Source: Pseudomonadota bacterium
GTDB taxonomy: Bacteria; Pseudomonadota; Gammaproteobacteria; Pseudomonadales; Halieaceae
Assembly: GCA_038748515.1 (NCBI GenBank)
Contig: JBCDIW010000002.1
Coordinates: forward strand, 382,296 to 422,295
Direction: 5' to 3'
DNA length: 40,000 nucleotides
In this document: positions 4,120-34,481 of the stretch, piece after piece
Numbering within the stretch: position 1 is the stretch's first letter
Layout: each line of letters begins with the position of its first letter
Made by a program: the position numbers and the translations under genes
The notes under the pieces: generated by a model
The model's input: only the letters and a program-made list of their open reading frames with translations
Told to the model about the DNA's origin: nothing
Databases searched by the model: none

Positions 4120-7100
4120 TCAGCGAAAGCTTCGCGGTTTTACACCCAGCTCCCCAAGGGCCTGCGAATGATCAAAGAGGGCGCCGGCAACGATGTGCGT
4201 CACGCCGTCTTTTTTCTGCAGTGTTCCTTTCACAAGCAGTAGCCGGCCTTTCATCAACGCTTCGCGGAACTGCACCTGAACGCCGGGCCAGACCACCACG
4301 TTGTTATTGCCCGTCTCATCTTCCAGGGTAAGGAAAAGAACGCCGGACGCCGTGCCCGGACGCTGTCGACAGGTGACGAGCCCGGCGATACGCACAAAGC
4401 GTCCGTCGCCGAGGGCTTCGAGATCCCGATTCCGCTTGCACTGGGTGAAGGGCGCACGCTCGCGCAGCAATGCCAGGGGATGGGCGCGCAGGCTGAGCCC
4501 CGTGCTCTGGTAATCAGCGACCACCGCTTCGGCCACGGCTGGGGCTTCGAGTTCGACCGCATCGCTGAGCTCCGAAGATGATGCCTGGCGTTCGTGTCCG
4601 AGGAGCGGACGCTCTGGTTCCAATGCCATCACCTGCCAGCGTGCCTGGTGGCGGTTGCCGCTAAGGCTGGCGAGGGCGTCGGCATCCACCAGCGCTTCCA
4701 TGGCGCCCTTGTCGAGCTGCGCGCGGCGGCGCAGATCCGCAATCTGACGGAATGCGCCGTGCTGGCGAGCCTCCCTGATCCGCTCGGCGGCTTCCCGGGC
4801 CAGACCCTTGACCAAACGGAGACCGAGGCGGACCGGCGCTTTGTGACCGGCGCGGCCATCGTCCAGGAGCTGGTGATCCCAATCGCTGTGGTTGACGTCG
4901 ATGGCGAGCACGTCCACGCCGTGGCGTCGCGCATCCTGAATGAGCTGCGACGGCGTGTAGAAACCCATGGGCTGGCTGTTCAGCAGGCCCACGTAGAAAG
5001 CCGCCGGGTGATGGCGTTTGAGCCAGGCAGACACATAGGCGAGGAGAGCGAAGCTCGCCGAGTGCGACTCGGGAAAACCATAACCACCGAAGCCCTTGAT
5101 CTGATCGAAGAGGCGTTTGGCGTAGTCCTCCGTATAGCCGCGGCGCAGCATGCCCTGAGTGAGCTTTTGCTCGAAGGTCATCAGCTTGCTGTTGCGTCCC
5201 CAGTTGGTGATGGCGCGACGGAGCTGGTCCGCCTCGCCACCGGTAAACCCCGCGGCGACCATCGCCAGGCGAATCACCTGCTCCTGGAAGATCGGCACAC
5301 CCAGGGTGCTCTGCAGCACGCTTTTCACGGCGTCATCGGGGTAGGTGACATCCTCCAGACCCTGGCGGCGGCGCAGATAGGGATGAACCATATCCCCCTG
5401 GATCGGCCCGGGGCGCACGATGGCAATTTCGATGACCAGGTCGTAGAAGCAGGCAGGCTTGAGGCGCGGCAGCATGGTCATCTGCGCTCGCGACTCGATC
5501 TGGAACACACCCAAGGAGTCGGCCTGCTGCAGCATGTGGTAGGTGGCGCTGTCTTCGGTCGGTACGTCCTGCAGGCTGCGGATGCGCGGGTCGTAGCGCT
5601 GCACCAGATCCAGGGATTTGCGGATCGCCGAGAGCATGCCCAGGGCAAGAACGTCGACCTTGAGCAGGCCGAGGGCTTCGATGTCTTCCTTGTCCCATTG
5701 GATGACCGTGCGGTCTGCCATGCTCGCGTTCTCCACGGGCACGAGCTGGGAGATGGGGCCGCGGGAGATCACGAAGCCGCCGACGTGCTGCGAGAGGTGG
5801 CGGGGGAAGCCGAGGATCTCCTGCACCAGTTGATAGAAGAGGGTGGCGGTGCTTGTTTCGCCGTCATCGCGTTCTGTGTCGAGGCCGTGCTCGGCGAAGC
5901 GTGCTTCGAGGTCGCGCTGTTTATCCCACCAGGCCAGGGACTTGGCGAGATCGTCGATGAAGATCGGGTCCAGGCCGAGCGCCTTGCCCACGTCGCGGAC
6001 GGCACTGCGCGCGCGGTAGGTGATGATCGTGGCGGCCAGGGCGGCGCGGCGGCGCGTGTACTTTCGGTAAATGTACTGGATGACTTCCTCGCGGCGTTCG
6101 TGCTCGAAGTCGACGTCGATGTCCGGCGGTTCGTCGCGCTCGCGGGAGATGAAGCGTTCGAAGAGCAGGGAGACCTTTTCCGGTGACACCTCGGTGACGA
6201 ACAGGCAATAGCAGACCACGGAGTTCGCCGCCGAGCCGCGACCCTGGCATAGGATGCCGCGCTCGCGGGCGAAGCGGACCACGTCGTAGACCGTGAGGAA
6301 GTAGTACTCGTAGTCGAGGTCGGCGATGAGCCTGAGTTCGGCTTCTATGCGCTCGTGCACGCTCTGCGGCACGCCGCCGGGCCAGCGCCGGCTGGCGCCC
6401 TGCCAGGTCAGCTCGCGCAGGTAGCTGCGCGCATCGTAGCCTTCGGGGACGACTTCCTCGGGGTATTCGTAGCGCAGTTCATCGAGGCTGAAGCGGCACT
6501 GGCGGGCGATGCGCCGGGTCTCCTTTAGCAACTCAGGTGGGTAGAAGCGTTCGAGCTGGTTGAGGCCGCGCAGGTGCTGCTGGGCATTGGGCAGGCGGCG
6601 GCTGCCGAGTTCGGCGATGCTGCAGTTGTGATAGAGCGCGGTCATCACATCGTGCAAAGGCTTGCGCGCGGCGCTGTGCATGCGTACATCGCCGCAGGCC
6701 ACCAGGGGAAGCCCGAGGTCCTGGCCGAGCGTCTGCAATGTCCGGTAGCGACGCAGCTCATCGTTGCCCAGCAGGTAGTGCACGCCGATCCACACACGCT
6801 CGCGACACAGGCGCGCGAGCTGGCGCCCGAAACCTCGCGTGCTCTCATCGTCGTCCCGGGGCAGCCAGATCAACAGGCAGCGTTTGAGCTGGAAGATCAC
6901 GTCGCGCAGGGCCAGCTCGTACTCGCCCTTGGGGCTACGCCGCCGTCCGAGGCTGATCAGTCCCGAGAGTTCGGCATAGGCCGCGCGAGTGGGCGCGATA
7001 GCAATCAGACGCAGTCCCTCCACCAGCGTGAACTCGCTGCCGATGATCAACTGCAGGCCGCATTCCTTCGCCGCAATGTGGGCCTTTACTACGCCTGATA

Positions 7101-7242
7101 GCGAGCATTCGTCGGTAATCGCGATGCCCGCATAGCCCTTCGCCGCCGCCCCCGCGACCAGCTCTTCCGGCCGGGAAGCTCCGCGCAGGAAACTGAAGCA
7201 GGACAGGCAGTGGAGTTCGGTGTAGTACGCGGAGGAAGGCAT
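4120..7242 (-). CDS. dnaE2: Error-prone DNA polymerase III alpha-like subunit DnaE2 (ImuC)
   Basis: 1040 aa. The N-terminus YTELHCLSCFSFLRGASRPEELV (PHP domain) and overall length are typical of DnaE2 rather than DnaE1. imuA and imuB are on the same strand in this window. Confidence 0.95.
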   Translation of the reverse strand: MPSSAYYTELHCLSCFSFLRGASRPEELVAGAAAKGYAGIAITDECSLSGVVKAHIAAKECGLQLIIGSEFTLVEGLRLIAIAPTRAAYAELSGLISLGRRRSPKGEYELALRDVIFQLKRCLLIWLPRDDDESTRGFGRQLARLCRERVWIGVHYLLGNDELRRYRTLQTLGQDLGLPLVACGDVRMHSAARKPLHDVMTALYHNCSIAELGSRRLPNAQQHLRGLNQLERFYPPELLKETRRIARQCRFSLDELRYEYPEEVVPEGYDARSYLRELTWQGASRRWPGGVPQSVHERIEAELRLIADLDYEYYFLTVYDVVRFARERGILCQGRGSAANSVVCYCLFVTEVSPEKVSLLFERFISRERDEPPDIDVDFEHERREEVIQYIYRKYTRRRAALAATIITYRARSAVRDVGKALGLDPIFIDDLAKSLAWWDKQRDLEARFAEHGLDTERDDGETSTATLFYQLVQEILGFPRHLSQHVGGFVISRGPISQLVPVENASMADRTVIQWDKEDIEALGLLKVDVLALGMLSAIRKSLDLVQRYDPRIRSLQDVPTEDSATYHMLQQADSLGVFQIESRAQMTMLPRLKPACFYDLVIEIAIVRPGPIQGDMVHPYLRRRQGLEDVTYPDDAVKSVLQSTLGVPIFQEQVIRLAMVAAGFTGGEADQLRRAITNWGRNSKLMTFEQKLTQGMLRRGYTEDYAKRLFDQIKGFGGYGFPESHSASFALLAYVSAWLKRHHPAAFYVGLLNSQPMGFYTPSQLIQDARRHGVDVLAIDVNHSDWDHQLLDDGRAGHKAPVRLGLRLVKGLAREAAERIREARQHGAFRQIADLRRRAQLDKGAMEALVDADALASLSGNRHQARWQVMALEPERPLLGHERQASSSELSDAVELEAPAVAEAVVADYQSTGLSLRAHPLALLRERAPFTQCKRNRDLEALGDGRFVRIAGLVTCRQRPGTASGVLFLTLEDETGNNNVVVWPGVQVQFREALMKGRLLLVKGTLQKKDGVTHIVAGALFDHSQALGELGVKPRSFR

Positions 7243-7263
7243 AGTGACAAGGGCGTGGGACGG

Positions 7264-8274
7264 TCACTGGGAGTCCAGCGGGCTGATCACGCCCATCGCG
7301 CCGCGGCCAAGCACGTGCGTGTAGATCTCGGTGGTTTTTACGTCCGAGTGGCCCAGCAGCTTCTGGATAGTCCTCAGATCGTAGCCCTGCTGGAGCAGGC
7401 GGGTCGCGAAGCTGTGTCGGAACGTATGACAGCGCACAGGTTTGTGTATGCCGGCCTGTAAGCGTGCTTTGGTAACGGCTTTGCGCAGAGAGGTTTCGTG
7501 AAGGTGATGGCGTCTATGCACCCCCGAGCGAGGATCGACACCGATACGAGTCGAGGGAAACAGGAACTGCCAGCCCGTCTCGCGGGCGGCCTTCGGGTAC
7601 TTACGGGCCAGGGCGTAGGGCATATAGACCTCACCGTAGCCGTCTTCGATATCGCGCTTGTGAAGCTTCTGCACCAGGGCAACCTGCGCTCGCAGCGGCT
7701 CCTCAAGCGCTGCCGGCAGCAGAGTCACGCGATCCTTATCGCCCTTTCCGGATCGCACCGTGAGTGTATTGAAATCAAAGTCGAGGTCCTTGATTCGCAG
7801 ACTCAGAAGCTCGTTCAGTCGCAGCCCCGACCCATAAAGCAGCTCTGCCATCAATCGGTGGTTGGCTGACATCTGGGCAAGGATTCGAAGTACCTCGGCG
7901 TGAGTAAGCACTACCGGCAGGCGACGCCTCAATCTGGCTTTGCTGAATTCCAGTGAATCCAGACTCATGCCCAGGAAGCGCACGAACAGATAGATCAACG
8001 CGTTTAGCGCGATGCGCTGTGTTGCTGGAGAGCACTGACGCTCATTGGCGAGGTGGCTCAGATACTGCTCGACATGCTCTGCAGAGAGAGTCGCGGGATG
8101 CTGCTTGCCGTGGAAGCGAATGAAGCGAGTGATCCAATGTATGTAGGTCTTTTCCGTCTTCCATGCATACCCACCGTCCCGAAGATGACGGCGTAGCTGA
8201 TCCAGGAGCCGCCTGGGCTGCGCCGGTACCTTGGGTGGAACGTCCGGAATGTTGTTTGATTGAGTACTGTACAT
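7264..8274 (-). CDS. intI: Integron integrase IntI (tyrosine recombinase)
   Basis: 336 aa. It has tyrosine recombinase boxes (HTFRHSFATRLL, LLGHSDVKTTEIYTHV) and the IntI-specific insertion around ALARKYPKAARETGWQFLFPS. It is divergent from an attC-bounded cassette array. Confidence 0.95.
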   Translation of the reverse strand: MYSTQSNNIPDVPPKVPAQPRRLLDQLRRHLRDGGYAWKTEKTYIHWITRFIRFHGKQHPATLSAEHVEQYLSHLANERQCSPATQRIALNALIYLFVRFLGMSLDSLEFSKARLRRRLPVVLTHAEVLRILAQMSANHRLMAELLYGSGLRLNELLSLRIKDLDFDFNTLTVRSGKGDKDRVTLLPAALEEPLRAQVALVQKLHKRDIEDGYGEVYMPYALARKYPKAARETGWQFLFPSTRIGVDPRSGVHRRHHLHETSLRKAVTKARLQAGIHKPVRCHTFRHSFATRLLQQGYDLRTIQKLLGHSDVKTTEIYTHVLGRGAMGVISPLDSQ

Positions 8275-8282
8275 ATATACAG
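8267..8282. promoter_or_regulatory. LexA (SOS) box CTGTACATATATACAG overlapping the intI start codon
   Basis: Perfect gammaproteobacterial CTGT-N8-ACAG palindrome with an AT-only spacer and TA flanks (TACTGTACATATATACAGTA). The intI ATG (8274-8272, minus strand) lies inside it. A TATACT -10-like hexamer overlaps the upstream half-site on the minus strand. Confidence 0.8.
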
Positions 8283-8479
8283 TATAGCTGGGTTTGGGAT
8301 GCTCGTAAGGGGTTTTTCAGCGTGCCTTGGCATACTTCTCCGCTAGTGCGTTGAAATTGCGCAAGTTTTTGCGATGACGACGGTCGAATTCGATGTATCA
8401 GCGTTGGGTACTACGTTCGTTGTTTCTGCCGGGTTAATCTGGGCATACAGTAAGGTATTGAAACATGCAGAAAATTTGC

Positions 8480-8554
8480 CGGGAGTTTGCCTGTGCGAGA
8501 AAAGATAGGGAGAAATGTATTAACGTGCTTTGTCTCGTTAATTAGCTGTTATGT
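8480..8554 (+). other. Putative attI recombination site (core GTTATGT at 8548-8554); left boundary approximate
   Basis: This is the first GTTRRRY core, between intI and the first cassette ORF (ATG at 8564), in an AT-rich spacer. A second GTTAATT lies at 8536-8542. Confidence 0.45.
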
Positions 8555-8561
8555 GTCACAG
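8546..8561. promoter_or_regulatory. Weak LexA-like palindrome CTGTTATGTGTCACAG overlapping the attI core
   Basis: It matches the CTGT-N8-ACAG skeleton, but the spacer (TATGTGTC) and flanks deviate from the consensus. About one chance match is expected in 40 kb. Confidence 0.25.
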
Positions 8562-8563
8562 CG

Positions 8564-8887
8564 ATGAAGCTACTCTTCGTTTGTTCGGAAAATCGCTTGC
8601 GAAGCCCAACAGCAGAAGAGGTCTTCTCTTCCTACCCAGGCGTAGAGGCCATTGGCTGCGGCACTAACGCTGATGCAGAAACACCTCTTTCCGGTGATCT
8701 GATTGAGTGGGCTGACGTTGTCCTTGTCATGGAGAAAACTCATCGCAGCAAGGTGGCGAAGAAGTATCGAGACCTCCTCAAGACGAAGAGGCTCGTGTGT
8801 CTGGATATACCTGACAATTATGCCCGCATGCAGCCAGAACTAGTGCATCTGTTAGAAGCTAAGGTTCCGAAGTATGTGCGTCTGTAG
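8564..8887 (+). CDS. Cassette 1: low-molecular-weight phosphotyrosine phosphatase-like protein
   Basis: 107 aa. The N-terminal LFVCSENRLRS fits the CX5R(S/T) P-loop of LMW-PTP/ArsC-like phosphatases. Confidence 0.65.
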   Translation: MKLLFVCSENRLRSPTAEEVFSSYPGVEAIGCGTNADAETPLSGDLIEWADVVLVMEKTHRSKVAKKYRDLLKTKRLVCLDIPDNYARMQPELVHLLEAKVPKYVRL

Positions 8888-8894
8888 CGGACAC

Positions 8895-8970
8895 ATAACA
8901 AGTCAAGGCTGCAAGGGCGCTTCGCGCCGGGACGTCCGCTGCGCGGCCGCCCCAGCTTGAAGCGTTAGGC
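8895..8970 (+). repeat. attC 1 (type A)
   Basis: ATAACAAGTCAAGGCTGCAAGGGCGCTTCGCGCCGGGACGTCCGCTGCGCGGCCGCCCCAGCTTGAAGCGTTAGGC. R'' ATAAC pairs with R' GTTAG, and L''/L' pair with an extrahelical G. Confidence 0.9.
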
Positions 8971-8990
8971 ATCACCTTAGTCGTCTAAGT

Positions 8991-9335
8991 ATGTGGATTT
9001 ATCTGAAAGCTTTTACCTTCTGTCTCTGTGTGGCGATATTCACCAGCGCTATGCTTGCTGGGTCTGTCTCATTGCTGAAGCCTGAGCAAGCAAAACTTGC
9101 TGAGATCCCCTTGTCGCTTGCTTTCCTATTGCCTATGAATGCAGCTTGTGCGTTCTTGGTCGCTCGAAACCTTGTGGTTGAATCACCTCGCTCGCCGTTG
9201 ATGTTGTCGCTTGGCTTGGCTGTTGCATACCTTCTTCTTCTGCCAATCCAAAGCATCGGGAGTGTGGTTTCTTATACGGGGGTGATTGTGGCTATCGTTC
9301 TGGGGGCTCGGCCTTGGCGAGGCGCCGATGCCTAA
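8991..9335 (+). CDS. Cassette 2: small integral membrane protein, unknown function
   Basis: 114 aa with 3-4 hydrophobic helices. It fills the cassette between attC1 and attC2. Confidence 0.55.
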   Translation: MWIYLKAFTFCLCVAIFTSAMLAGSVSLLKPEQAKLAEIPLSLAFLLPMNAACAFLVARNLVVESPRSPLMLSLGLAVAYLLLLPIQSIGSVVSYTGVIVAIVLGARPWRGADA

Positions 9336-9407
9336 CAAGTCAAGGCTGCAGGGGCGCTTCGCGCCGGGACGTCCGCTACGCGGCCGCCCCAGCTTGAAGC
9401 GTTAGGT
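9332..9407 (+). repeat. attC 2 (type A)
   Basis: CTAACAAGTCAAGGCTGCAGGGGCGC...CAGCTTGAAGCGTTAGGT, near-identical to attC1. Confidence 0.9.
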
Positions 9408-9852
9408 GTCCCAGGTGAGTCCGATGACTCTAGGCGTTCTTGCTGTCCCTGTAGTTTTACTGGGGGCGATTTTTCTCGGCCCGGTGGTCTATAAGGCTTT
9501 CGACCCAGTTTGGGATTTGGTTATGAACAAATACTTATCGAACGTGTGGGGCGATTGGTTCACATACTCAATGCTAATTGCAATCGGGTTCGCAAAAGTA
9601 ATCTCCTTGGCCGGCCTGTCCACGTTATTGCCGGCAATCGTTCTGGCGTACATGCAGCTTGACGGAAGAAGTGCCGCGGTTAGTAGCGTCGTTACAGGCT
9701 CCATAGTTGCGTCAACCGCCTATCTAAGCGGAGTGTGGTCCTTCTACGTTCCGTTTCACTCTTCGCTATGGTTTGGTTTCGCTCTGATTACTTGTTTAGT
9801 TGCTCTGGCTATGTGGGTTGAAGCTAGGAGTTTTCGTTGGCTGCTGAAATAA
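9406..9852 (+). CDS. Cassette 3: integral membrane protein, unknown function (GTG start inside the attC2 core)
   Basis: 148 aa with about 4 hydrophobic helices. It fills the cassette. Confidence 0.55.
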   Translation: MSQVSPMTLGVLAVPVVLLGAIFLGPVVYKAFDPVWDLVMNKYLSNVWGDWFTYSMLIAIGFAKVISLAGLSTLLPAIVLAYMQLDGRSAAVSSVVTGSIVASTAYLSGVWSFYVPFHSSLWFGFALITCLVALAMWVEARSFRWLLK

Positions 9853-9855
9853 CAC

Positions 9856-9940
9856 CTAACAAGTCAAGGCTGCAAGGGCGCTTCGCGCCGGGACGATCAA
9901 ACCGCTACGCGGTTTGCCGCCCCAGCTTGAAGCGTTAACG
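9856..9940 (+). repeat. attC 3 (type A, longer central loop)
   Basis: CTAACAAGTCAAGGCTGCAAGGGCGCTTCGCGCCGGGACGATCAAACCGCTACGCGGTTTGCCGCCCCAGCTTGAAGCGTTAACG. Confidence 0.85.
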
Positions 9941-10231
9941 AGCGCATATCCCTCTGGCCAGGGTGAGAGGCAATCGGGTCGTATGACACCTCTGTTTAGT
10001 TATCCAATGATTAGCTTCTCAGTGGTCTCAAAACTAGTACGGTTCGTTCCTGGAGCCACATCTCCGGCCGGAGCTATCCTTCAGTCCGGTCGCTTCAGGC
10101 GGCGGGGTAGCGCGCTCAAAGATCTCTCTCTAATTTGCAGGACAGCGCGATTGCGCGGCGGATCCGCTCGGGCGTGGCCTTCGCATACGCTGCGGCAGGT
10201 TGGTCGCCTCGAAGTCCTTCCCAGCGCTGCG

Positions 10232-10317
10232 TTAACCAGTGAAGGCTGCAAGGGCGCTTCGCGCCGGGACACCAAAACCGCTACGCGGTTTCGGCGCCCC
10301 AGCTTGAAGCGTTATGC
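10232..10317 (+). repeat. attC 4 (type A variant)
   Basis: TTAACCAGTGAAGGCTGCAAGGGCGCTTCGCGCCGGGACACCAAAACCGCTACGCGGTTTCGGCGCCCCAGCTTGAAGCGTTATGC. Confidence 0.85.
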
Positions 10318-10330
10318 GTCCCTCTAGCGC

Positions 10331-10756
10331 ATGATTTGCGTCGAAACGCGGAGTTTCCAACAGCAGATTGAGGTGCTGAAGCACTTAGCAAGTGATCGTG
10401 CGCTGATGGTTTGTGCGTGGTTGTATCCCGAGTCGGAACTCCAAAGTATCGCTGGCTTCGATACTGACTTGGTTCCGGTCGGGCTACAGCCTGTTACCAC
10501 GTACGGTGACAACCATCAGCCGCGCCATACCACGCTGTGTATCGCCTCCAACGATGCGTTTGAAGCCTTCTCCGATGCGGAGTCCGAAGTGCGTGCAAAT
10601 TGCGATTGCCTCGCGCTCTACACGGAAGGCGAGTCGTCTTGGTATGCGTCAGCCATTGGGCACGAAGGCATGTGTTTGCTCAACACAGAAGCAACGCCGT
10701 CAGCTTTGAGAAACGCTGGCTTCACCATATCTAACGAGGCGCCGCCGTGGTGGTGA
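10331..10756 (+). CDS. Cassette 5: hypothetical cytoplasmic protein
   Basis: 141-aa ORF filling the cassette. No motif recognised; the protein ends ...NEAPPWW. Confidence 0.5.
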   Translation: MICVETRSFQQQIEVLKHLASDRALMVCAWLYPESELQSIAGFDTDLVPVGLQPVTTYGDNHQPRHTTLCIASNDAFEAFSDAESEVRANCDCLALYTEGESSWYASAIGHEGMCLLNTEATPSALRNAGFTISNEAPPWW

Positions 10757-10759
10757 CGC

Positions 10760-10835
10760 ATAACAAGTCAAGGCTGCAAGGGCGCTTCGCGCCGGGACGT
10801 CCGCTACGCGGCCGCCCCAGCTTGAAGCGTTATGC
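10760..10835 (+). repeat. attC 5 (type A)
   Basis: ATAACAAGTCAAGGCTGCAAGGGCGC...CAGCTTGAAGCGTTATGC. Confidence 0.9.
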
Positions 10836-10853
10836 GGCTTGAACTAGGCCCTC

Positions 10854-11087
10854 ATGCAATTTGAGATCATTGGGGCTATTGAATCCGCTGAAACTTTTGC
10901 AACGGGTCGGGGTATACGCGAGCTCCCGCGCCTCAAGCGCATTTATGGCAATGGACGATAGCGTAAGCGAAAGGGAGAGGCGACCATCCGCCTTACGGAT
11001 GGCACTATTCTTAGAGCGGAGATACACTGGTACGAAGCCACGGGTATCGGGCGCAAAGAGTACAAGATCAAGCGCCTACTGGACTGA
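10854..11087 (+). pseudogene. Cassette 6 gene A: small conserved protein interrupted by an in-frame TAG at 10959-10961 (probable TGG to TAG)
   Basis: ATG at 10854 gives MQFEIIGAIESAETFATGRGIRELPRLKRIYGNGR, then TAG. The same frame continues RKRKGEATIRLTDGTILRAEIHWYEATGIGRKEYKIKRLLD to the TGA at 11085. The GR-W-RK context and the HWYEA.GIG..E.KIK tail resemble a small protein family I recall from cassette and TA contexts. Confidence 0.5.
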
Positions 11088-11088
11088 T

Positions 11089-11310
11089 ATGACCATTCCA
11101 AAATACGTAATCTGCATCGAAAACACCGACTACGAGGCTTCACTGGAAGTGCGGAAGATCTACGAGGTGGTTCCGGACGCTCGGGCTCAGACTCTCGGGC
11201 ATCTACGTGTCATTGATGAGTCTGGTGAAGACTATATGTACCCCGCTGAGCGCTTCGTTGATGCTCACCTATCTAAGTCTGTCGAAGAGGCAGTCGCAAA
11301 CGCCGCATAA
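11089..11310 (+). CDS. Cassette 6 gene B: small acidic protein (73 aa), possible partner of gene A
   Basis: The ATG lies 1 nt after the gene A stop. MTIPKYVICIENTDYEASLEVRKIYEVVPDARAQTLGHLRVIDESGEDYMYPAERF... reads as a globular protein. The upstream part of the 149-aa track ORF is a different-frame artefact. Confidence 0.5.
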   Translation: MTIPKYVICIENTDYEASLEVRKIYEVVPDARAQTLGHLRVIDESGEDYMYPAERFVDAHLSKSVEEAVANAA

Positions 11311-11394
11311 CAAGGCCAGGCAGCTCGCTCCCTTCGGTCGCCGGACGTCAAAATCGCTACGCGCTTTTGCCGCCCGCTGCTGGCAGCGTTAAGC
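11307..11394 (+). repeat. attC 6 (type B)
   Basis: ATAACAAGGCCAGGCAGCTCGCTCCCTTCGGTCGCCGGACGTCAAAATCGCTACGCGCTTTTGCCGCCCGCTGCTGGCAGCGTTAAGC. Confidence 0.85.
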
Positions 11395-11419
11395 GGCTGC
11401 ATCCACTACTCGTGCCAAC

Positions 11420-11656
11420 GTGAAAGTCACCAAGTACTTCGAATCTCTGTCTGCTCGACCTGATCGTGCGGGCATCAAACCTGAGTGGATCCAGCGAGTT
11501 GTGCGTGCTCCCGAAAGAGAGCATATTCAGGCCGACGGCCGCATACGACGGTGGGCTCCTGTGCCGGAGATGCAAGGCCGTTACTTGCGTGTAGTCCTGC
11601 TTCCCGACGGCGAAACAGTTCACAACGCGTTTTTTGATAGGGGCTACAAGCCGTGA
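11420..11656 (+). CDS. Cassette 7 gene 1: DUF4258-like putative toxin
   Basis: 78 aa. The ...GRYLRVVLLPDGETVHNAFFDRGY tail is typical of DUF4258. Its stop overlaps the next start (GTGA at 11653-11656). Confidence 0.65.
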   Translation: MKVTKYFESLSARPDRAGIKPEWIQRVVRAPEREHIQADGRIRRWAPVPEMQGRYLRVVLLPDGETVHNAFFDRGYKP

Positions 11657-11850
11657 AAGCTAAATACTTCAGAGATACCGATACGCTCTACATCGAGTTT
11701 AGAGCAGGTGACATCGTCGAAACGCGCGATCTCGATGAAGATACAGTGATTGAACTCGATGCCAACGGGAACATCTGTGCAATGACCATGGAGCACGCCA
11801 AAGATCGCACCGATGCACTCCACTTCACATTCGAAGAAGTCGCCGCTTAA
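11653..11850 (+). CDS. Cassette 7 gene 2: DUF2283-like putative antitoxin
   Basis: 65 aa. MKAKYFRDTDTLYIEFRAGDIVETRDLDEDTVIELDANGNICAMTMEHA fits the DUF2283 pattern (D.lYi.f....es.e....v..D..G.i.g.e). Confidence 0.65.
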   Translation: MKAKYFRDTDTLYIEFRAGDIVETRDLDEDTVIELDANGNICAMTMEHAKDRTDALHFTFEEVAA

Positions 11851-11925
11851 CAAGGTGTGGCTGGCGCTCCGCTGGGACGTCAAAACCGCTGCGCGGTTTC
11901 GCCGCCCCAGCACACGGCGTTATGC
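11847..11925 (+). repeat. attC 7 (variant arms)
   Basis: TTAACAAGGTGTGGCTGGCGCTCCGCTGGGACGTCAAAACCGCTGCGCGGTTTCGCCGCCCCAGCACACGGCGTTATGC. Confidence 0.8.
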
Positions 11926-12284
11926 GTAACTCCGCCGCACTTCGCCTTTTGGCGGTGATGCCTCTCGGAATTCTGCTCTGGGAATGGGCTTCTTGGCTCG
12001 AGCTCGCGCAGGAGCATGCTTCGCGTCCAGCAGGATCAACGCTACTTGTGAATGTATCCGGAGTGATTGTCCTCGGCCTTCTTGTCAGCCAGTCTGCCCC
12101 TTCCAGGTCGATGTCGATGTTGGCGTTGGGCTGGTGTGCAATCTCCGTAGTGGAGACGATGTTTAGTTTCCAGGTATTCGAGTTTAAGGGGTTGATTGCT
12201 GCTTGGGTGGCTCCGGCGTTACTACAGGTTTTGGTTCTAAGTCCTGCCATTGCGTTGGCGTATCGCAATGCCCGTCACGCATAA
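11922..12284 (+). CDS. Cassette 8: small integral membrane protein (ATG inside the attC7 GTTATGC core)
   Basis: 120 aa with 3-4 hydrophobic helices. Confidence 0.5.
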   Translation: MRNSAALRLLAVMPLGILLWEWASWLELAQEHASRPAGSTLLVNVSGVIVLGLLVSQSAPSRSMSMLALGWCAISVVETMFSFQVFEFKGLIAAWVAPALLQVLVLSPAIALAYRNARHA

Positions 12285-12368
12285 CAAGGCCAGGCAGTTC
12301 GCTCCCTTTGGTCGCCGGACGTCCAATCCGCTGCGCGGCTTGGCCGTCCGCTGCTGGCGGCGTTATGC
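12281..12368 (+). repeat. attC 8 (type B)
   Basis: ATAACAAGGCCAGGCAGTTCGCTCCCTTTGGTCGCCGGACGTCCAATCCGCTGCGCGGCTTGGCCGTCCGCTGCTGGCGGCGTTATGC. Confidence 0.85.
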
Positions 12369-12413
12369 GGCTACCGACTTGACATACCGAATAGGGTATA
12401 TATCGTATAAAGT

Positions 12414-12698
12414 ATGTGGGTTGTCTACGAACATCGAAACGTCGATAAGCAGCTCGCGAAGACGCCTTCGGAGGTTCAGAAGCGTTACGAGAAGTGGAAA
12501 GACATCGTTGAGTTGTCCGGCCCGCAGGGAGTAAAGCTTATTCGTGGGTTTCGTGATGAAGCCCTACGAGGTGAATGGAAGGGCTATCGATCCTCCCGCC
12601 TCAACCAGCAGTATCGAGTTATCTACAGACTCGATGGAAGTAGATTCGAAGTATTCGTGGTCGATGTCACGCCCCACGATTATCGAAGGAAATCCTGA
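12414..12698 (+). CDS. Cassette 9 gene 1: RelE/ParE-superfamily (HigB-like) toxin
   Basis: 94 aa. ...LRGEWKGYRSSRLNQQYRVIYRLDGSRFEVFVVDVTPHDY is the typical RelE-fold C-terminus. Its stop overlaps the next start (ATGA). Confidence 0.8.
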   Translation: MWVVYEHRNVDKQLAKTPSEVQKRYEKWKDIVELSGPQGVKLIRGFRDEALRGEWKGYRSSRLNQQYRVIYRLDGSRFEVFVVDVTPHDYRRKS

Positions 12699-12958
12699 TG
12701 AGTGACTTTCGAAAAGCAAAACGTCGCGTTGCCGTATCTCCCGGTGAGTCTGTGAGAATCATCCGTGAGCTTCAAGAACTTAGCCAAAACCAGCTTGCAG
12801 AACTGGCTGGAATGCCACAATCAACAATCTCAGCAATCGAGACCGGAAGAGTCAATCTAGGAGTAGATCGCGCCAAGACTCTCGCGCGTGTGCTGAAGTG
12901 TCATCCAGCAGTATTGGTGTTCCCTGGATGGGATGTTGGTACTGAATCCGCCGCATAA
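12698..12958 (+). CDS. Cassette 9 gene 2: XRE-family HTH antitoxin (HigA-like)
   Basis: 86 aa with an HTH motif (LSQNQLAELAGMPQSTISAIETGRVNLGVDRAKTLARVL). It is translationally coupled to the toxin. Confidence 0.8.
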   Translation: MSDFRKAKRRVAVSPGESVRIIRELQELSQNQLAELAGMPQSTISAIETGRVNLGVDRAKTLARVLKCHPAVLVFPGWDVGTESAA

Positions 12959-13030
12959 CAAGTCAAGGCTGCAAGGGCGCTTCGCGCCGGGACGTCCGCT
13001 GCGCGGCCGCCCCAGCTTGAAGCGTTATAT
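12955..13030 (+). repeat. attC 9 (type A)
   Basis: ATAACAAGTCAAGGCTGCAAGGGCGC...CAGCTTGAAGCGTTATAT. Confidence 0.9.
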
Positions 13031-13063
13031 GGATGGCGCCAGCAATACCGCAGTGACTTCGTT

Positions 13064-13462
13064 ATGAATGAGTCTAATCTTGTAGAGGTAGTGATCTACA
13101 TCCGGGAGCAAATCGCGTTCCTGTGGAATTTTTATGTCACTGTGAGTGCGGTACTAATCGGGTGGGTGTTTTCTTCTAAGATGCAATGGTCGAGAGAGGT
13201 AGGCCTTATTGTACGAGGGCTGTTCGTGGTGTTTGCCTCAATCAATGGAATAGCGCTTTACAACGAGTACTCTCTAATGCACTTGGCAATAGATGATCTC
13301 CGGTCTCGCTCAGATGCAACGAGTGGCTTTGTCTACGAGTTTTCTCGTTCGGGCGGTCTTGGGCCGTCTGTTGCGGCGCTTACCCATCTCGTGGGTGATA
13401 TCGTCATTCTGTCACTTATCAATTTGCGGCTCCGCAGTGTTCTCCCACCTAGATCCACATAA
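13064..13462 (+). CDS. Cassette 10: integral membrane protein, unknown function
   Basis: 132 aa with 3-4 hydrophobic helices. The stop lies in the ATAAC inverse core of its attC. Confidence 0.5.
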   Translation: MNESNLVEVVIYIREQIAFLWNFYVTVSAVLIGWVFSSKMQWSREVGLIVRGLFVVFASINGIALYNEYSLMHLAIDDLRSRSDATSGFVYEFSRSGGLGPSVAALTHLVGDIVILSLINLRLRSVLPPRST

Positions 13463-13466
13463 CAAG

Positions 13467-14663
<1,197 letters not shown>

Positions 14664-14761
14664 ATCATACAAGTCAAGGCTGCAGGGGCGCTTCGCGCCG
14701 GGACGTCCGCTACGCTGCCGCCCAGCTTGACGCGATAGATGTGCTTGTCCGAGGTTGCGAT

Positions 14762-14962
14762 ATGCCAAAAAGTCCTGACAAGCAGAATCCTGAGAATGCT
14801 TCCTCATCAGGTGCTGCGATCGCTATAGGTGTAGGTATCGGAGTAGCGTTCGGCTTGCCGTTTGGGTTGGCAATAGAGAATGTTGGTGTCGGCGTGGGCG
14901 TTGGCACGGGTATCGGTGTTGCGCTTGGCATTGCTATTGGTGCGGCTAGAGGGAAGTCCTAG
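14762..14962 (+). CDS. Cassette 11: glycine-zipper small membrane protein
   Basis: 66 aa from the ATG at 14762, with GAGG 8 nt upstream. The GAAIAIGVGIGVAFGLPFGLAIENVGVGVGVGTGIGVALGIAIGAA repeats form a GxxxG zipper. Confidence 0.5.
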   Translation: MPKSPDKQNPENASSSGAAIAIGVGIGVAFGLPFGLAIENVGVGVGVGTGIGVALGIAIGAARGKS

Positions 14963-14985
14963 CGTGTCTTGTCTAGATCGCCCAC

Positions 14986-15070
14986 CTAACGAGTTAAGGC
15001 TTCAAGGTCGCTTTGTGCCGGGACGTCAAAACCGTTACGCCGTTTCGCCGCCCGTGCTTGAAGCCTTGCC
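14986..15070 (+). repeat. attC 11 (diverged type A, degenerate R')
   Basis: CTAACGAGTTAAGGCTTCAAGGTCGCTTTGTGCCGGGACGTCAAAACCGTTACGCCGTTTCGCCGCCCGTGCTTGAAGCCTTGCCT. Confidence 0.65.
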
Positions 15071-15118
15071 TGCCTTAAGGAGCAGGGATGCACCGGAACC
15101 GTTTTAGAGCTCTGCAAC

Positions 15119-15292
15119 ATGCGAATCATCGGTCCAGATTCGGCTATGGCCGTTACGAAATGGAGGCGCCTCGGCCGGGGCGACGAAGTCGTCGAGCGCC
15201 TGGGAACGACATACACGCTAGTGAAAGTAGGGGCTGAGTGGAAAGTAGCCGTCGTGATAGTACACGATGAGGATGTAGTTCTTTTCGAATAA
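15119..15292 (+). pseudogene. Cassette 12: possible remnant of an NTF2-like/DUF4440-type gene (57-aa ORF)
   Basis: MRIIGPDSAMAVTKWRRLGRGDEVVERLGTTYTLVKVGAEWKVAVVIVHDEDVVLFE resembles only the C-terminal strands of an NTF2-like fold. It is below the ORF-track cutoff. A competing Arg-rich 49-aa ORF with a strong AAGGAG site starts at 15088. Confidence 0.25.
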
Positions 15293-15332
15293 CGGCAAGG
15301 TGGTTATCGGTGCGAAACAATTGCTCCGCATC

Positions 15333-15404
15333 GTACGTGGCCAGGCAAGCCGCTTCGCGGAACATCAAACCGACAGTTTGCCGCCCATGCTGGTAGCGTT
15401 ATGT
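15333..15404 (+). repeat. attC 12 (type B, degenerate R''), last recognisable attC
   Basis: ...GTGGCCAGGCAAGCCGCTTCGCGGAACATCAAACCGACAGTTTGCCGCCCATGCTGGTAGCGTTATGT. Confidence 0.6.
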
Positions 15405-25249: not shown

Positions 25250-25606
25250 GTGGAACCCGCAGCCGTCAACCTGCAGTCCAAGCTGGATTCATTCAGCGAG
25301 CACTGGTCGCCGAAAATCGTGTCGGCGTTCAACGGGCACGATGTCATGGTGGTCAAAGCGCGGGGCGAATTCACCTGGCACTCGCATCCGGATACCGACG
25401 ACTTCTTCCTGGTGCTCAAAGGTCGCCTGACCATCAAGCTCCGAGACGGTGACGTACACCTGGGTCCCGGCGAACTCTACATCGTCCCGAAAGGTGTAGA
25501 GCATTGCCCCGTTGCCGAGGAAGAAGTTCAGCTGCTGCTCATCGAGCCTGCGGGAACGCCGAACACGGGTGACGAGAAGACCGCGGTCGTAAAGACCCAT
25601 CTATAG
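25250..25606 (+). CDS. Cupin-domain protein
   Basis: WHSHPDTDDFFLVLKG...PKGVEHCP are cupin motifs 1 and 2. GTG start 2 nt after the rhodanese stop. Confidence 0.7.
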   Translation: MEPAAVNLQSKLDSFSEHWSPKIVSAFNGHDVMVVKARGEFTWHSHPDTDDFFLVLKGRLTIKLRDGDVHLGPGELYIVPKGVEHCPVAEEEVQLLLIEPAGTPNTGDEKTAVVKTHL

Positions 25607-25656
25607 TGCCCAACCTCAGTGCCCAACCTCAGTGCCCAACCTCAGTGCCCAGCCTC
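25605..25656. repeat. 13-bp tandem repeat AGTGCCCAACCTC x4
   Basis: Read directly. It begins at the cupin stop codon, and the fourth copy has one substitution. Confidence 0.9.
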
Positions 25657-25889
25657 CATAGCTTACCGATACTCGGAATTCTCGGCGAGAGATTGTGCGT
25701 TGCAGGAGCTTTAAGGCTAGCGCCATAGCTATCGCCGCAGGAGGAAAACTCGCCGCAACGTGCGAGATCCAGCAAGAAACCAAACAGGCATTTCGCGAGG
25801 CGATTGCCGATTCAATGGGCGTCTGGTCGCCGAAGCGGTGATAACTGGCGGCCAGAGCGCCGCCCGACGACACGGGGAGGCAAACGCCG

Positions 25890-29261: not shown

Positions 29262-30686
29262 TCAGGCAAAGAGGCCGTGGAGAAACCAGCGCTGCAGCCG
29301 GCGCTCGTGGTACACCCAGAAGCGCTGCCCCTGCTCATTGCGGGCGACAAAGTAGTCGCGGCTGGTGCCACCCTGCCACCAGCCGTCCTCGATGCGCTCC
29401 GGGCCATACACGAGCGTGAGGCGACTTCCCCAGAAAGAGAGACGGTCTTCCCGCTGGCCCAGGGTTTCGGGGGTGGACAGTAACCAGAAGGGGCGTTGCG
29501 CCGCTGCGGGTGTCGCACCCGAAGGCGCGTCACCGGGCGCGACACTGGCGTAGCTGTCCTCCGGGAGATGTCCATCCCGACAGCGCAGGCTGCTCACAGC
29601 CCGCGATCCCAGGCGATTGCTGAGCAGGTCCACCAGCTTTGCCGGCGACACGCCCTGGCCTCGCGCACCGAAGAGATCGACAGGCTCCGGCTCGGCGCTC
29701 TCCAGCTGCATTACGCAAAGTTGTACCAGTTCCACTTCATCGCGAAAAGGGCGACGCTCAAGGCGCAGTCGTGTAAGCCGGTACCAGTCCGCACGGGTGG
29801 TGCCCGGGGTGCTGGCGCGGACTTCGAGCTCCTCCTGGTATTCGCCGATGCCCCGGAAACGCCACAGCAGCAGGCGTGTCTGGAGCTGGCGCTGGCGCAG
29901 ATAGTTCTCCAGGGACTCCAGGAGTTGTTCGAGAGCGGGCCCCAGCTCATCCTGATTGCGGACCGGGTAGCCCAGGGGGTAGCTGTCCTGGAAACAGCTC
30001 GGCGGCTCGAAGTGCACCACGGCCTCGATACGTTCTCCGCGTAGATGCTGCAGCAGTTCGCTGAAGTCGCGGCCGCCGCGTTTCCCCAGGGCAGCGACCG
30101 GCAGGGCGAGGATATCTCCCAGCCTGTGCAGCCCGCTGCGCTCCAGGGCACTGAACTGCGGATCAAGGGGGCTGAGCAGACTGCTGGGCAGCTCGGCGAG
30201 ACGCTCTTCGAGCGGCGTATCTACATTACTGCGCCCCGCGCTGCCATGGGACAGGGCCCAGGCTGCCAGGGGGGTCTGCGCTGCCGCTATTTCCACGCTG
30301 AAGCCCCGGCTCGCGAGGCCGCGTCGGCAGTAGCGGAGTATGGCGTCGAGGCCGCCGAAGAGACGAAGGGAGCCCGCAACCTCGAGCATCAGGCAGTCAC
30401 CGCGGAAGCTGTACAGGTGCGGTGTTACGCCGTAGGCCCAGCAGGACAGGTCTTCGAGAGCCTGCTGCTCTGCGCCTGGGTCCCGAGCGAGCAGTTGCAG
30501 GGGCTGCTCGCCGGCGAGCGCCCGGGCGCTCGCCGGATCCATGCCCGCCTCGATGCCGAGCAGGCTTGCAGCGGCGTTCATGGCATGAACGCGCTGTTGC
30601 TCAAGCACGGCGACCGCCAACGGCCGCCGGTGGGGCAGGCACTGCACCGCCAGTTCCGGCAGACGCAGGCAGAGCCAGAGTTGCAT
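29262..30686 (-). CDS. imuB: ImuB, Y-family polymerase-like accessory protein of the DnaE2 mutasome
   Basis: MQLWLCLRLPELAVQCL...AVAVLEQQRVHAMNAAA...GIEAGM is the typical ImuB N-terminus. About 474 aa, with a LexA box about 20 nt upstream; imuA and dnaE2 are on the same strand. The start is taken as the ATG at 30686. Confidence 0.9.
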   Translation of the reverse strand: MQLWLCLRLPELAVQCLPHRRPLAVAVLEQQRVHAMNAAASLLGIEAGMDPASARALAGEQPLQLLARDPGAEQQALEDLSCWAYGVTPHLYSFRGDCLMLEVAGSLRLFGGLDAILRYCRRGLASRGFSVEIAAAQTPLAAWALSHGSAGRSNVDTPLEERLAELPSSLLSPLDPQFSALERSGLHRLGDILALPVAALGKRGGRDFSELLQHLRGERIEAVVHFEPPSCFQDSYPLGYPVRNQDELGPALEQLLESLENYLRQRQLQTRLLLWRFRGIGEYQEELEVRASTPGTTRADWYRLTRLRLERRPFRDEVELVQLCVMQLESAEPEPVDLFGARGQGVSPAKLVDLLSNRLGSRAVSSLRCRDGHLPEDSYASVAPGDAPSGATPAAAQRPFWLLSTPETLGQREDRLSFWGSRLTLVYGPERIEDGWWQGGTSRDYFVARNEQGQRFWVYHERRLQRWFLHGLFA

Positions 30687-30704
30687 GGGTACTTCCATCA
30701 AATA

Positions 30705-30720
30705 CTGTACATATATACAG
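30705..30720. promoter_or_regulatory. LexA (SOS) box CTGTACATATATACAG upstream of imuB
   Basis: Perfect CTGT-N8-ACAG within the near-palindrome TCAAATACTGTACATATATACAGTATTTGA. It lies 19 nt upstream of the imuB ATG. Confidence 0.85.
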
Positions 30721-30759
30721 TATTTGATTTCCGCCGGATTGGCGAACCCGCGAGCCGCC

Positions 30760-31405: not shown

Positions 31406-31508
31406 AAAGACGTCTCCTGGCGGCTTGTCTGGCTAGCGGGCAGCGACGGCGCTGCTACTGCGGAGCGGCGTTATAGCCGGTGGAGAGGCGGGATGCTAGT
31501 AGGCTTTA

Positions 31509-31613
31509 GCCAAAGGTACCTGCCAAAAGTACCTGCCAAAGGTATTTGCTAAAGGAATTGGCCAAAAGCCATTTGCCAAAGGTTTCGGCCCGAGGTGTTG
31601 GTCCAAAGTAACG
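31509..31613. repeat. Degenerate 13-bp tandem array (GCCAAAGGTACCT-like, about 8 units)
   Basis: Read directly: gccaaaggtacct gccaaaagtacct gccaaaggtattt gctaaaggaattg gccaaaagccattt gccaaaggtttcg gcccgaggtgttg gtccaaagtaacg. Confidence 0.85.
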
Positions 31614-32250
31614 ATTGCCTGCTACTGATGTAAGCGGAAATTGTCCGCAAGCTTTTCGCCACAAACAACGCCCCTTGCGGTAGCGGTACACGGTTAGCAA
31701 GAGCGTCTTCACCGGATCTTACAGTCTCATCAATTCCGGCCATGAACTCACACAGTCTTAATGGAGTATCCTTGATTGGCAGGGTCCGGCCTGAAGAAAA
31801 TCGCACTGAGTCGCAGCAGGAGTTGCTTCAGTCCATGGATAGCTTCACTGTTCAGACTTCGACCACTATGCTGCTCATCTAGTCCGTCCCACGCATTCGC
31901 TGCGCAACGGTCGGGATATATCGGTGGTTAACTTCTTGGTTTCATGTTGGCCAAATGTTGGCCTCATCGCGCTCCCAAGGACACTTCTCATCAATGCTGT
32001 CTTTGTTGGAAGCGGGTGTCGTCGAGTAGAAAGTCGAAACCTCTGTCGGCGACCCGAAGCGGAGTATGGCCATTGCAACGAGTTCTACACCGCCGAGCCT
32101 TGAGCGCTGTTGAGCGAGTTGCTTGCCGTTTTCTCGGCCGCTTGCACTAGACTTCTGCCTCACTTGGTGCGGGAATATTTAGCCGTTTTCAGTACGTTAA
32201 ACGCTCTGTTTATTTAACGGAATTAGTCGGAGATTAGAGGGGTATCTATT

Positions 32251-32949
32251 TTGCAAGAGCAGCTCAGAGCGCAAATACTGACTGATCCACCCAAGTTTCA
32301 TTTCTGGCACGGCAAACATTCGGCTGGGGGGTTCTTGAACAGTGATTTCGAGGACTTTGATGAGCTTCTAAAACTTCTGCCACCGGGCGCCGAATCCCGG
32401 AATTTCATTGAAACCGGTGCGGGACTGTCGACACTTTGGTTCTTGGCGAATGAGTTCCGAGTAGTCTCATTTACACTGGAAAAAATTGCAGATGCTGTCA
32501 ATGGCTACCTGCGTGATGGATACCCTGAACTAGCTGGCCAGTGGACATGCTTCACCGGAAAGAGTGAAAGGAACCTCGTGCCGTTCACAAATGGCGAGAA
32601 GCAAGATGCTTTCGACATCGCATTGATCGATGGAAATCATGCTATCGCCACGGTGTTCGCCGACTATGTTGGATTGAATCTTTGTCTTAAGAAAGGAGGG
32701 CTTCTGATCGTCGACGACGTGCGGCTTCCCGGTCCCAGATTACTTGATCAACTCCTGATGCAATTGACTGATGACTGGGAGCATGTATGGACCCAAGAAA
32801 GAGGAAAATGGAAGTGCTACAGGAAAACAACGGACGCCGACGTCCGGATAGGAAACTGTAAGGAGTTCTCCTTTTATGTGCCCCCACCGGGGCAACGAAG
32901 CCTCTTGCGCAGAGTAAAAACGAAGGCGGGTAAGCTGTTGGGACTATGA
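32251..32949 (+). CDS. Class I SAM-dependent methyltransferase (O-methyltransferase family 3-like)
   Basis: 232 aa. The IETGAGLSTLW (motif I) and DIALIDGNH...GGLLIVDDV pattern. Low-GC codon usage and a TTG start. Confidence 0.65.
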   Translation: MQEQLRAQILTDPPKFHFWHGKHSAGGFLNSDFEDFDELLKLLPPGAESRNFIETGAGLSTLWFLANEFRVVSFTLEKIADAVNGYLRDGYPELAGQWTCFTGKSERNLVPFTNGEKQDAFDIALIDGNHAIATVFADYVGLNLCLKKGGLLIVDDVRLPGPRLLDQLLMQLTDDWEHVWTQERGKWKCYRKTTDADVRIGNCKEFSFYVPPPGQRSLLRRVKTKAGKLLGL

Positions 32950-33120
32950 ACCGAGAACAACCGGTAACCGAGTTTACGGCTGGTGTTCTACCGTAGCCAA
33001 TCCATTGGCACGGACTTGTGGTCCCCCCAATGAATAAGCGCGACGTGCAGCAGCCTGGTGACTTGCGATGTGGTTTTCGAGCCTCGCGTAACTTGTAAGA
33101 CAGGCCCCTGCCAAAGAGCA

Positions 33121-33254
33121 CAGTCCCGAAGGTACAGTCCCGAAGGTACAGTCTCGAAGGTACAGTCTCGAAGGTACAGTCTCGAAGGTACAGTCTCGAA
33201 GGTACAGTCTCGAAGGTACAGTTCCGAAGGTACAGTCTCGAAGCTACAGTCTGA
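33121..33254. repeat. 14-bp tandem array CAGTCTCGAAGGTA, about 9.5 units
   Basis: Read directly. Five central units are identical, and the edge units carry single substitutions (cagtcccgaaggta, cagttccgaaggta, cagtctcgaagcta). Confidence 0.95.
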
Positions 33255-33335
33255 TCGGAGACTGACCGGGTATATGCGCTCGAAATGGAGTCTGAAAAGT
33301 CGTAGCGCTCACGAATAGCAGTGCTTCTCGCAACG

Positions 33336-34388: not shown

Positions 34389-34413
34389 GCTGCAGATCCT
34401 CTCAGGCAAAATA

Positions 34414-34429
34414 CTGTATATAAAAACAG
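34414..34429. promoter_or_regulatory. LexA (SOS) box CTGTATATAAAAACAG upstream of imuA
   Basis: TACTGTATATAAAAACAGTA matches the gammaproteobacterial consensus. It lies 26 nt upstream of the proposed imuA ATG. Confidence 0.8.
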
Positions 34430-34481
34430 TAGTCTGGAAATGAGCATCCTGCAAGCGCGATTGCGCTCACCTGTCGCTTTG

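Follow-up and report, generated by a model that had tools for sequence, protein, structure and literature searches.

The integron integrase gene intI and the mutagenesis gene imuB are preceded by the same 21-nt box in a 40,000-nt window of a Halieaceae genome (GenBank assembly GCA_038748515.1, contig JBCDIW010000002.1, positions 382,296 to 422,295; "the window" is this whole stretch, and coordinates count from its first letter). As a whole, the data are probably best explained by near-consensus operators of the SOS repressor LexA that are identical through constraint, the copy at intI serving as the single operator of an SOS unit formed by intI and the error-prone polymerase gene dnaE2. Loci of other genomes are referred to by handles beginning with L.

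The predicted operators of intI and imuB

The exact 21-mer TACTGTACATATATACAGTAT occurs at 8265-8285 and at 30703-30723, where 100 shuffles gave an expectation of 0 matches. The repeat family is just 21 nt long; homology ends exactly at the box edges and the flanks are unrelated, as the first-pass annotation of this DNA had described. Both sites are CTGT-N8-ACAG palindromes with TA flanks and an AT-rich centre, one base off the perfect palindrome TACTGTATATATATACAGTA, and the CTGT-N8-ACAG pattern is found four times in the window against 0.51 expected. The box lies over the promoter or start of a predicted damage-inducible gene and is kept at the corresponding sites in relatives. Judged by palindrome form and gene context, both 21-mers are near-consensus, predicted high-affinity LexA (SOS) operators of the gammaproteobacterial type, which agrees with their earlier description as LexA-type operators ahead of SOS genes. 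Both lie on the minus strand, the intI box reading TACTGTATATATGTACAGTA in gene direction. The box of imuA (34412-34431, minus strand), TACTGTATATAAAAACAGTA, differs from the 21-mer, again as reported previously.

We then scanned for the exact 20-mer in one genome per species and found it at no fewer than 119 loci in other genomes, across many Gamma- and Betaproteobacteria. The 21st base is T in 100 of the 119 matches listed. At 66 of the 119 listed loci the 5' end of imuA, imuB, dnaE2 or intI lies within 700 nt of the box (ImuB 29, ImuA 20, DnaE2 13 and IntI 4 among the matches listed), and at other listed loci the box stands ahead of dinI, lexA, umuD-like peptidase, radical-SAM and AlkB-like genes. 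The 21-mer thus proves to be a common SOS operator across other genomes. The first-pass annotation, which considered a special link between the two sites, had itself named common use of the 21-mer by SOS genes of this genome as counting against it; judged across genomes, this part of its reading is not supported. A convergence control is provided by the imuA box of the window, which matches the umuDC operator of Escherichia coli K-12 at 20 of 20 positions. Both are strong operators ahead of a mutagenic polymerase, but the genes and the bacterial orders are unrelated, and the identity is therefore convergent.

Identity within one genome is not automatic, since the second imu boxes on the same loci of relatives are usually 1-4 nt away from the 20-mer. 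Among boxes found without reference to the box sequence, the exact 20-mer was present in two of 11 Halieaceae-type intI boxes and in none of six Congregibacter-clade imuB boxes. The latter include the closest relative, L211 (95% ImuB identity, near-identical flanks), whose imuB box, TACTGTATGCATGTACAGTA, differs by 2 nt. Hence the intI/imuB identity is not a maintained trait. In comparison with outgroups, it is the window that retains the commoner bases in its imuB box and L211 that has changed, so gene conversion toward the intI box was rejected. Boxes at corresponding positions of intI, dnaE2 and imuB are found throughout the Halieaceae.

With a single base separating the 21-mer from a perfect palindrome, identity of two strong operators amounts to identity of a short AT-rich centre, and tightly repressed SOS operators fill a very small sequence space. 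Given that the identity is not conserved and that nothing is shared past the box, we attribute it to constraint on strong SOS operators. By these comparisons the 21-nt identity itself is the ordinary outcome of tight sequence constraint, and the two sites are not recent copies of one another.

The putative intI-dnaE2 unit

ImuA, ImuB and DnaE2 are all encoded in the window, on the minus strand, in three separate units that each lie behind a CTGT-N8-ACAG box; this is not a single contiguous imuA-imuB-dnaE2 operon behind one LexA box. The imuA gene (33336-34388; NF033429, E = 1.1e-59) is separated by 2.6 kb from imuB (29262-30686), and imuB by 22 kb from dnaE2 (imuC; 4120-7242; NF004225, 1387 bits). 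From the open reading frame translation, imuA likely starts at the ATG at 34388, 23 nt downstream of its box. The imuB ATG lies 16 nt past its box (N-terminus MQLWLCLRL); the protein gave no match in NCBIfam, and its homologues are named ImuB and carry PF00817.

An integron sits between imuB and dnaE2. Its integrase gene (7264-8274, minus strand) encodes 336 aa with the N-terminus MYS (TIGR02249, 435.7 bits against a cut-off of 265, E = 1.1e-130) and points into dnaE2. Adjoining intI and divergent from it is a cassette array at 8893-15404 with 12 attC sites, all on the plus strand (covariance-model scores of 46-98 bits), so that the integrase and the cassette array of an integron are present; past 15404 the covariance model gave no further attC match in the window. 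The probable attI region (8480-8561, plus strand), assigned by inspection, lies between intI and the first cassette open reading frame (8564-8887), and its sole candidate core, picked by eye, is GTTATGT at 8548-8554. The fourth CTGT-N8-ACAG match, CTGTTATGTGTCACAG at 8546-8561, overlaps this candidate core just ahead of the first cassette open reading frame. It is probably not a LexA site, as the TA flanks and the AT-rich centre are absent.

Between the intI stop and the dnaE2 start there is a 21-nt spacer (7243-7263), ccgtcccacgcccttgtcact, in which we found no box, no terminator-like site and no Shine-Dalgarno-like purine run. The most economical reading is that intI and dnaE2 would be co-transcribed from the intI promoter, placing dnaE2 under SOS control through the intI box. 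DnaE2 may be translated by coupling to IntI.

The homologues of this IntI belong to the Halieaceae, including Congregibacter, Halioglobus and Haliea; an identical IntI is encoded in the metagenome-assembled genome GCA_039197615.1, on a 5.9-kb contig. Among loci whose IntI is at least 62% identical, dnaE2 lies at most about 130 nt downstream in 15 of 19 and about 760 nt away in two more (L128 and L137). Of 57 loci in which IntI is at most 57% identical and enough downstream sequence is available, none has dnaE2 there. The gene follows intI directly in L004, L073, L096, L119, L120, L121, L123, L124, L125, L127, L130 and L132-L136, with a gap of 2 nt in L125 (Halioglobus japonicus). Attachment sites resembling attC are found upstream of intI in relatives, and the gene order common to close relatives is leuS-lptE-holA-imuA-OsmC-DUF2788-imuB-orf-blc...dnaE2. 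The pairing of intI with dnaE2, in which the integron separates imuB from dnaE2, is seen repeatedly across the Halieaceae, a family of marine bacteria.

Other loci have dnaE2 alone, and these retain the identical box immediately upstream of it. In a neighbour-joining tree of DnaE2, loci with and without intI are interspersed, and the intI of L119 is broken and appears to be decaying. Together these favour an old intI-dnaE2 unit from which intI was lost repeatedly. The attC model, which is specific to the attC type of the window array, gave no matches in the dnaE2-only loci, the imuA-imuB gaps or L207-L210; there is thus no evidence that these hold cassette arrays. A lone attC-like match of 42.9 bits was seen in L004 (2575-2645), downstream of dnaE2 and outside any array.

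The start codon of intI

The minus strand of 8265-8285 reads TACTGTATAT-ATG-TAC-AGT-A, and its ATG (8274-8272) is codon 1 of the 336-aa open reading frame 7264-8274. Ahead of imuB the identical ATG opens only MYSI-stop, and our reading of the open reading frames agrees with the first-pass annotation on this point. No other in-frame ATG, GTG or TTG precedes residue 23 of the window IntI, where the integrase model match starts.

Eighteen homologues (at least 74% identity) begin with MYS and five further residues, followed by the position of the family's usual start, MDD(I/V)RP. Only Congregibacter brevis keeps the ancestral Met at this position; the other 17 have I, P, F, L or V there. The residue is Pro or Phe in seven homologues of the MYS clade, where the 8-codon extension stays open and of constant length. 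For L123 the protein was called from the later ATG, and both ATGs are in frame at the DNA level. The identical box occupies the matching position in L004, L073, L120, L121 and L127, with variants of 1-3 nt in L122 (C. brevis) and L123. In more distant members, of 327-328 aa, the start is MDDIR and lies 15-21 nt past the box, with a Shine-Dalgarno sequence in between; unlike these MDD-type relatives, the window has no Shine-Dalgarno sequence ahead of its intI ATG.

The MYS start shared by 18 homologues, together with the loss of the ancestral Met in 17, indicates from sequence comparison that the box ATG is the real and only usable start in the window's IntI clade. On the same comparison, this clade has shifted its start onto the box ATG, losing the older ATG and its Shine-Dalgarno sequence. 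The proposal that the box encodes the Met-Tyr-Ser of intI is thereby borne out. Open reading frames of at least 100 codons that start at a box ATG were also considered as evidence. They occur in 19 of the 119 listed loci, which is about what chance in-frame read-through would give, and the count was not used.

Promoter register

The hexamer TATACT at 8286-8281 (minus strand) is -10-like and lies 6 nt upstream of the A of the intI ATG, just where it had been noted before. In MYS-type intI loci TATACT is the best -10 candidate and ends 6 nt before the A of the ATG in all six loci, 2 nt further upstream than the TACTGT of the other groups. MDD-type intI loci have a TTGAAA-like -35, a 16-nt spacer and TACTGT in 8/8 evaluable loci, and dnaE2-only loci have the same arrangement in 4/6. 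The promoter register therefore changes in step with the change from MDD to MYS starts.

With TATACT 6 nt before the ATG in 6/6 MYS-type loci, a leaderless or very short-leader intI mRNA is plausible. The window intI has neither a Shine-Dalgarno sequence nor an alternative start, as expected of a leaderless message, and no structure is predicted for the first 27 nt of the putative mRNA. Further upstream, at 8303-8319 on the minus strand, lie a weak -35-like TTACGA (8308-8303) and a TGAAAAA tract (8319-8313). Every Halieaceae intI locus compared has TGAAAAA 26-29 nt upstream of its box, but the dnaE2-only loci lack it; the tract could be an UP element or belong to attI.

Box ATGs in other Halieaceae loci

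The imuB promoters of the Halioglobus/Haliea type read T(G/A)GACA, a 17-18-nt spacer, (A/G)ATACT, 6 nt and then the box ATG in 18/18 loci. Seventeen relatives have an ATG-bearing imuB box and an identifiable imuB start, and in 14 of these (L007, L012, L014, L017, L027, L037, L050, L055, L062, L074, L081, L087, L089 and L090) a reading frame opened by the box ATG terminates at a TGA that shares bases with the imuB start, as (G/A)TGA. These upstream open reading frames have 16-25 codons, begin MYS(I/T) and are poorly conserved. The imuB start lies 47, 62, 65, 71 or 74 nt from the box ATG, in each case 2 modulo 3, so that all five length classes hold the required frame.

L084 (5597-5616) has an in-frame fusion of imuB to the box ATG (MYSIYKTPSSLWLCLRF), and L207 (20729-20748), which lacks intI, has a dnaE2 whose called start is this ATG (MYSNRPN...). 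Together with the upstream open reading frames, these fusions suggest wider use of the box ATG as a start codon in relatives, which would explain why the asymmetric variant of the box recurs in that orientation. The clade of the window itself, however, has a short imuB leader, and there the pattern of upstream open reading frames is not conserved. We considered a coupling of the MYSI stop of the window to an in-frame ATG (TGATG, MEVP-MQLW) and rejected it, as it is lost in L211, the 95% relative, through a shift of 1 nt.

The imuB leaders with upstream open reading frames also carry a conserved (A/C)TGGGG-N4-6-CCC element. A separate observation is that the LexA box often sits in the middle of a much longer perfect palindrome, with arms that vary from species to species (L025, L035, L066, L075, L082, L109, L125 and others). 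At least six extra complementary nucleotides per side were found in 13% of the 119 loci listed, compared with 0.26% in a control that paired flanks across loci. The imuB box of the window is the centre of such a palindrome of 32 bp (30697-30728), and the intI box has no extended palindrome. Long palindromes around boxes might have a hairpin or insulator function, or might arise by templated correction of quasi-palindromes.

Proposed model and alternatives

We propose that the box at 8265-8285 would be the sole operator of a two-gene SOS unit, intI-dnaE2, and that this unit would form the distal part of an imuA / imuB / dnaE2 mutagenesis locus split, between imuB and dnaE2, by a sedentary chromosomal integron common to the Halieaceae. 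When bound, LexA would extend over the -10 hexamer and the predicted transcription start and on to the third codon of intI. Upon DNA damage, self-cleavage of LexA would free the promoter. Transcription by RNA polymerase would begin on the A of the box ATG or beside it, so that the mRNA would have little or no leader. Translation of IntI would use the AUG at the 5' end of this mRNA. DnaE2 would be made from the same transcript, probably by translational coupling to intI, as it has neither a box nor a Shine-Dalgarno sequence of its own. The asymmetric base of the box, the G of the ATG, would be retained at intI because it is part of the start codon.

A broader reading, which we put forward tentatively and rate somewhat below an even chance, is that throughout the Halieaceae one 20-bp element acts as LexA operator, as -10/+1 region and as translation start, the G being selected since SOS transcripts begin at that AUG. 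The MYS-clade intI start, the L207 dnaE2 and L084 imuB fusions and the upstream open reading frames in 14 of 17 imuB leaders all fit. If it is true, and with the intI-dnaE2 operon, cassette shuffling and error-prone synthesis would be on one damage-controlled leaderless transcript.

Several points weigh against the proposed intI-dnaE2 unit and its leaderless transcript. The MYS-type intI of C. brevis has no dnaE2 after it, nor does the intI of L131. In L136 and L137, with IntI at 62-64% identity, there is no recognisable LexA box upstream of intI even though dnaE2 still follows, and SOS control seems to have been lost in these lineages. The exact-20-mer sample was selected on the box itself. 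The window codon at the ancestral start is Ile (ATT), in principle a possible rare start. The -35 TTACGA matches at only 3/6 positions, and a simple sigma-70 scan of 7150-8650 gave no promoter at a 9-of-12 threshold. Furthermore, the transcription start site, LexA binding and co-transcription are all inferred from sequence.

The first-pass annotation had offered two explanations for the shared 21-mer, namely duplication or transfer of an operator when the integron joined the imu locus, and strong selection for one optimal operator, and the latter is the better. We consider it very improbable that one operator was recently copied onto the other at or since the arrival of the integron in the imu locus, be it by gene conversion, by duplication or by transfer. 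The match is exact over 21 nt and has the same orientation relative to both genes, as a copy would, and the usual 1-4 nt differences of second imu boxes in relatives show that such identity does not arise automatically. However, homology stops exactly at the box, and the 21st base is T in 100 of 119 unrelated occurrences listed. The 20-mer is widespread, the Halieaceae boxes at matching positions are older than the window's lineage, and the differing imuB box of L211 is the changed one, the window keeping the commoner bases. The convergent 20/20 match to the umuDC operator indicates that constraint alone suffices.

The role of the box ATG and the origin of the unit leave more room for other readings. 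The ATG could be incidental, the box being an ordinary promoter-overlapping operator and intI having a normal leader from an upstream promoter or a non-canonical downstream start. The weak -35 and the lack of a detected consensus promoter would fit this, as would the ATT at the ancestral start position and the near-chance count of long box-ATG open reading frames (19 of 119 loci listed); leaderless mRNAs are, moreover, uncommon in Gammaproteobacteria. Against it, the Pro or Phe at the ancestral position in seven MYS-clade homologues cannot initiate translation while the 8-codon extension stays open at constant length, the Shine-Dalgarno sequence of MDD-type relatives is absent in the window, and a later start would cut conserved N-terminal residues, given that the integrase model match begins at residue 23. 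We rate an incidental ATG as unlikely. Less unlikely, though still doubtful, is that the intI box was originally the dnaE2 operator and that intI, with no box of its own, was inserted between the dnaE2 promoter and dnaE2, making the dnaE2-only arrangement ancestral. The dnaE2-only Halieaceae loci do share the 20-mer, the -35 (cacTTGAAAt), the 16-nt spacer and the box layout with MDD-type intI loci, and they have no attC sites upstream. On the other hand, the mixing of loci with and without intI in the DnaE2 tree and the decaying intI of L119 speak for an intI-dnaE2 unit as the ancestral state, from which intI was lost repeatedly, and unrelated intI genes commonly have LexA boxes upstream as well (PMC3108266).

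Relation to known systems

The intI transcript proposed here can be compared with known leaderless bacterial mRNAs such as that of lambda cI from PRM and that of Tn1721 tetR. These likewise have an AUG at +1, no Shine-Dalgarno sequence and, as predicted for intI, an unstructured 5' end. The start codon lies within a repressor operator only in the present case, where +1 is predicted from the DNA. A LexA-regulated imuA-imuB-dnaE2 mutagenesis cassette is said to have been described by Abella et al. in 2004 and Erill et al. in 2006. As in that cassette (reviewed in PMC3901139), ImuA, ImuB and DnaE2 are all present here, each with a LexA box, and split cassettes that retain LexA control are known (PMC3901139). 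The window differs in that the genes form three units, an integron is interposed between imuB and dnaE2, and the dnaE2 unit would open with intI.

Guerin et al. reportedly described in 2009 that integron integrase promoters are under LexA (SOS) control, for class 1 intI1 and Vibrio cholerae intIA. There, as here, a CTGT-N8-ACAG box overlaps the intI promoter, whereas here the box also holds the start codon, the mRNA is probably leaderless and dnaE2 directly follows intI. In the survey of LexA boxes ahead of intI genes by Cambray et al. 2011 (PMC3108266), the supplement lists the 16-nt core CTGTATATATGTACAG once, upstream of one intI, and the paper makes no mention of dnaE2/imuA or of leaderless transcripts. 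The family-wide fixed position, the apparent vertical inheritance and the occasional decay of intI resemble the sedentary Xanthomonas integron next to ilvD (10.1101/2025.06.18.660453), but the fixed neighbour here is an SOS mutagenesis gene that would use the integrase's operator. A full-text search for literature on integron-imu linkage or Halieaceae integrons found none, an absence that is no proof of novelty.

The arrangement seen across the family, in which a single SOS box precedes intI and dnaE2 and the integron splits the imu locus, is a variation on known SOS control. What sets it apart is a chromosomal integron inside a mutagenesis locus, where cassette recombination and mutagenic synthesis appear to be wired together. 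If confirmed, DNA damage would switch on both from one promoter. With its start codon inside the operator, intI would also be a rare example of a gammaproteobacterial SOS gene that is probably leaderless. Cultured strains of Congregibacter and Halioglobus exist and are open to experiment.

Other features of the window

An OsmC-like gene and a DUF2788-like gene lie between imuB and imuA, and the window also holds holA, lptE and leuS. An Rfam scan of the window returned no family. Between imuA and the OsmC-like gene there is a stretch of about 1.9 kb (31406-33335) that is absent in close relatives, where the gap is about 120-220 nt (L207, L208 and L210). It holds a 232-aa open reading frame (32251-32949, plus strand) with no NCBIfam match and two tandem arrays, one of a 14-nt unit repeated about 10 times (33092-33280) and one of a 13-nt unit (31508-31608). 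Further short tandem repeats are a 13-nt unit present four times at 25596-25660 and a 12-nt unit inside imuA (34134-34213), which encodes an AAKT-rich repeat.

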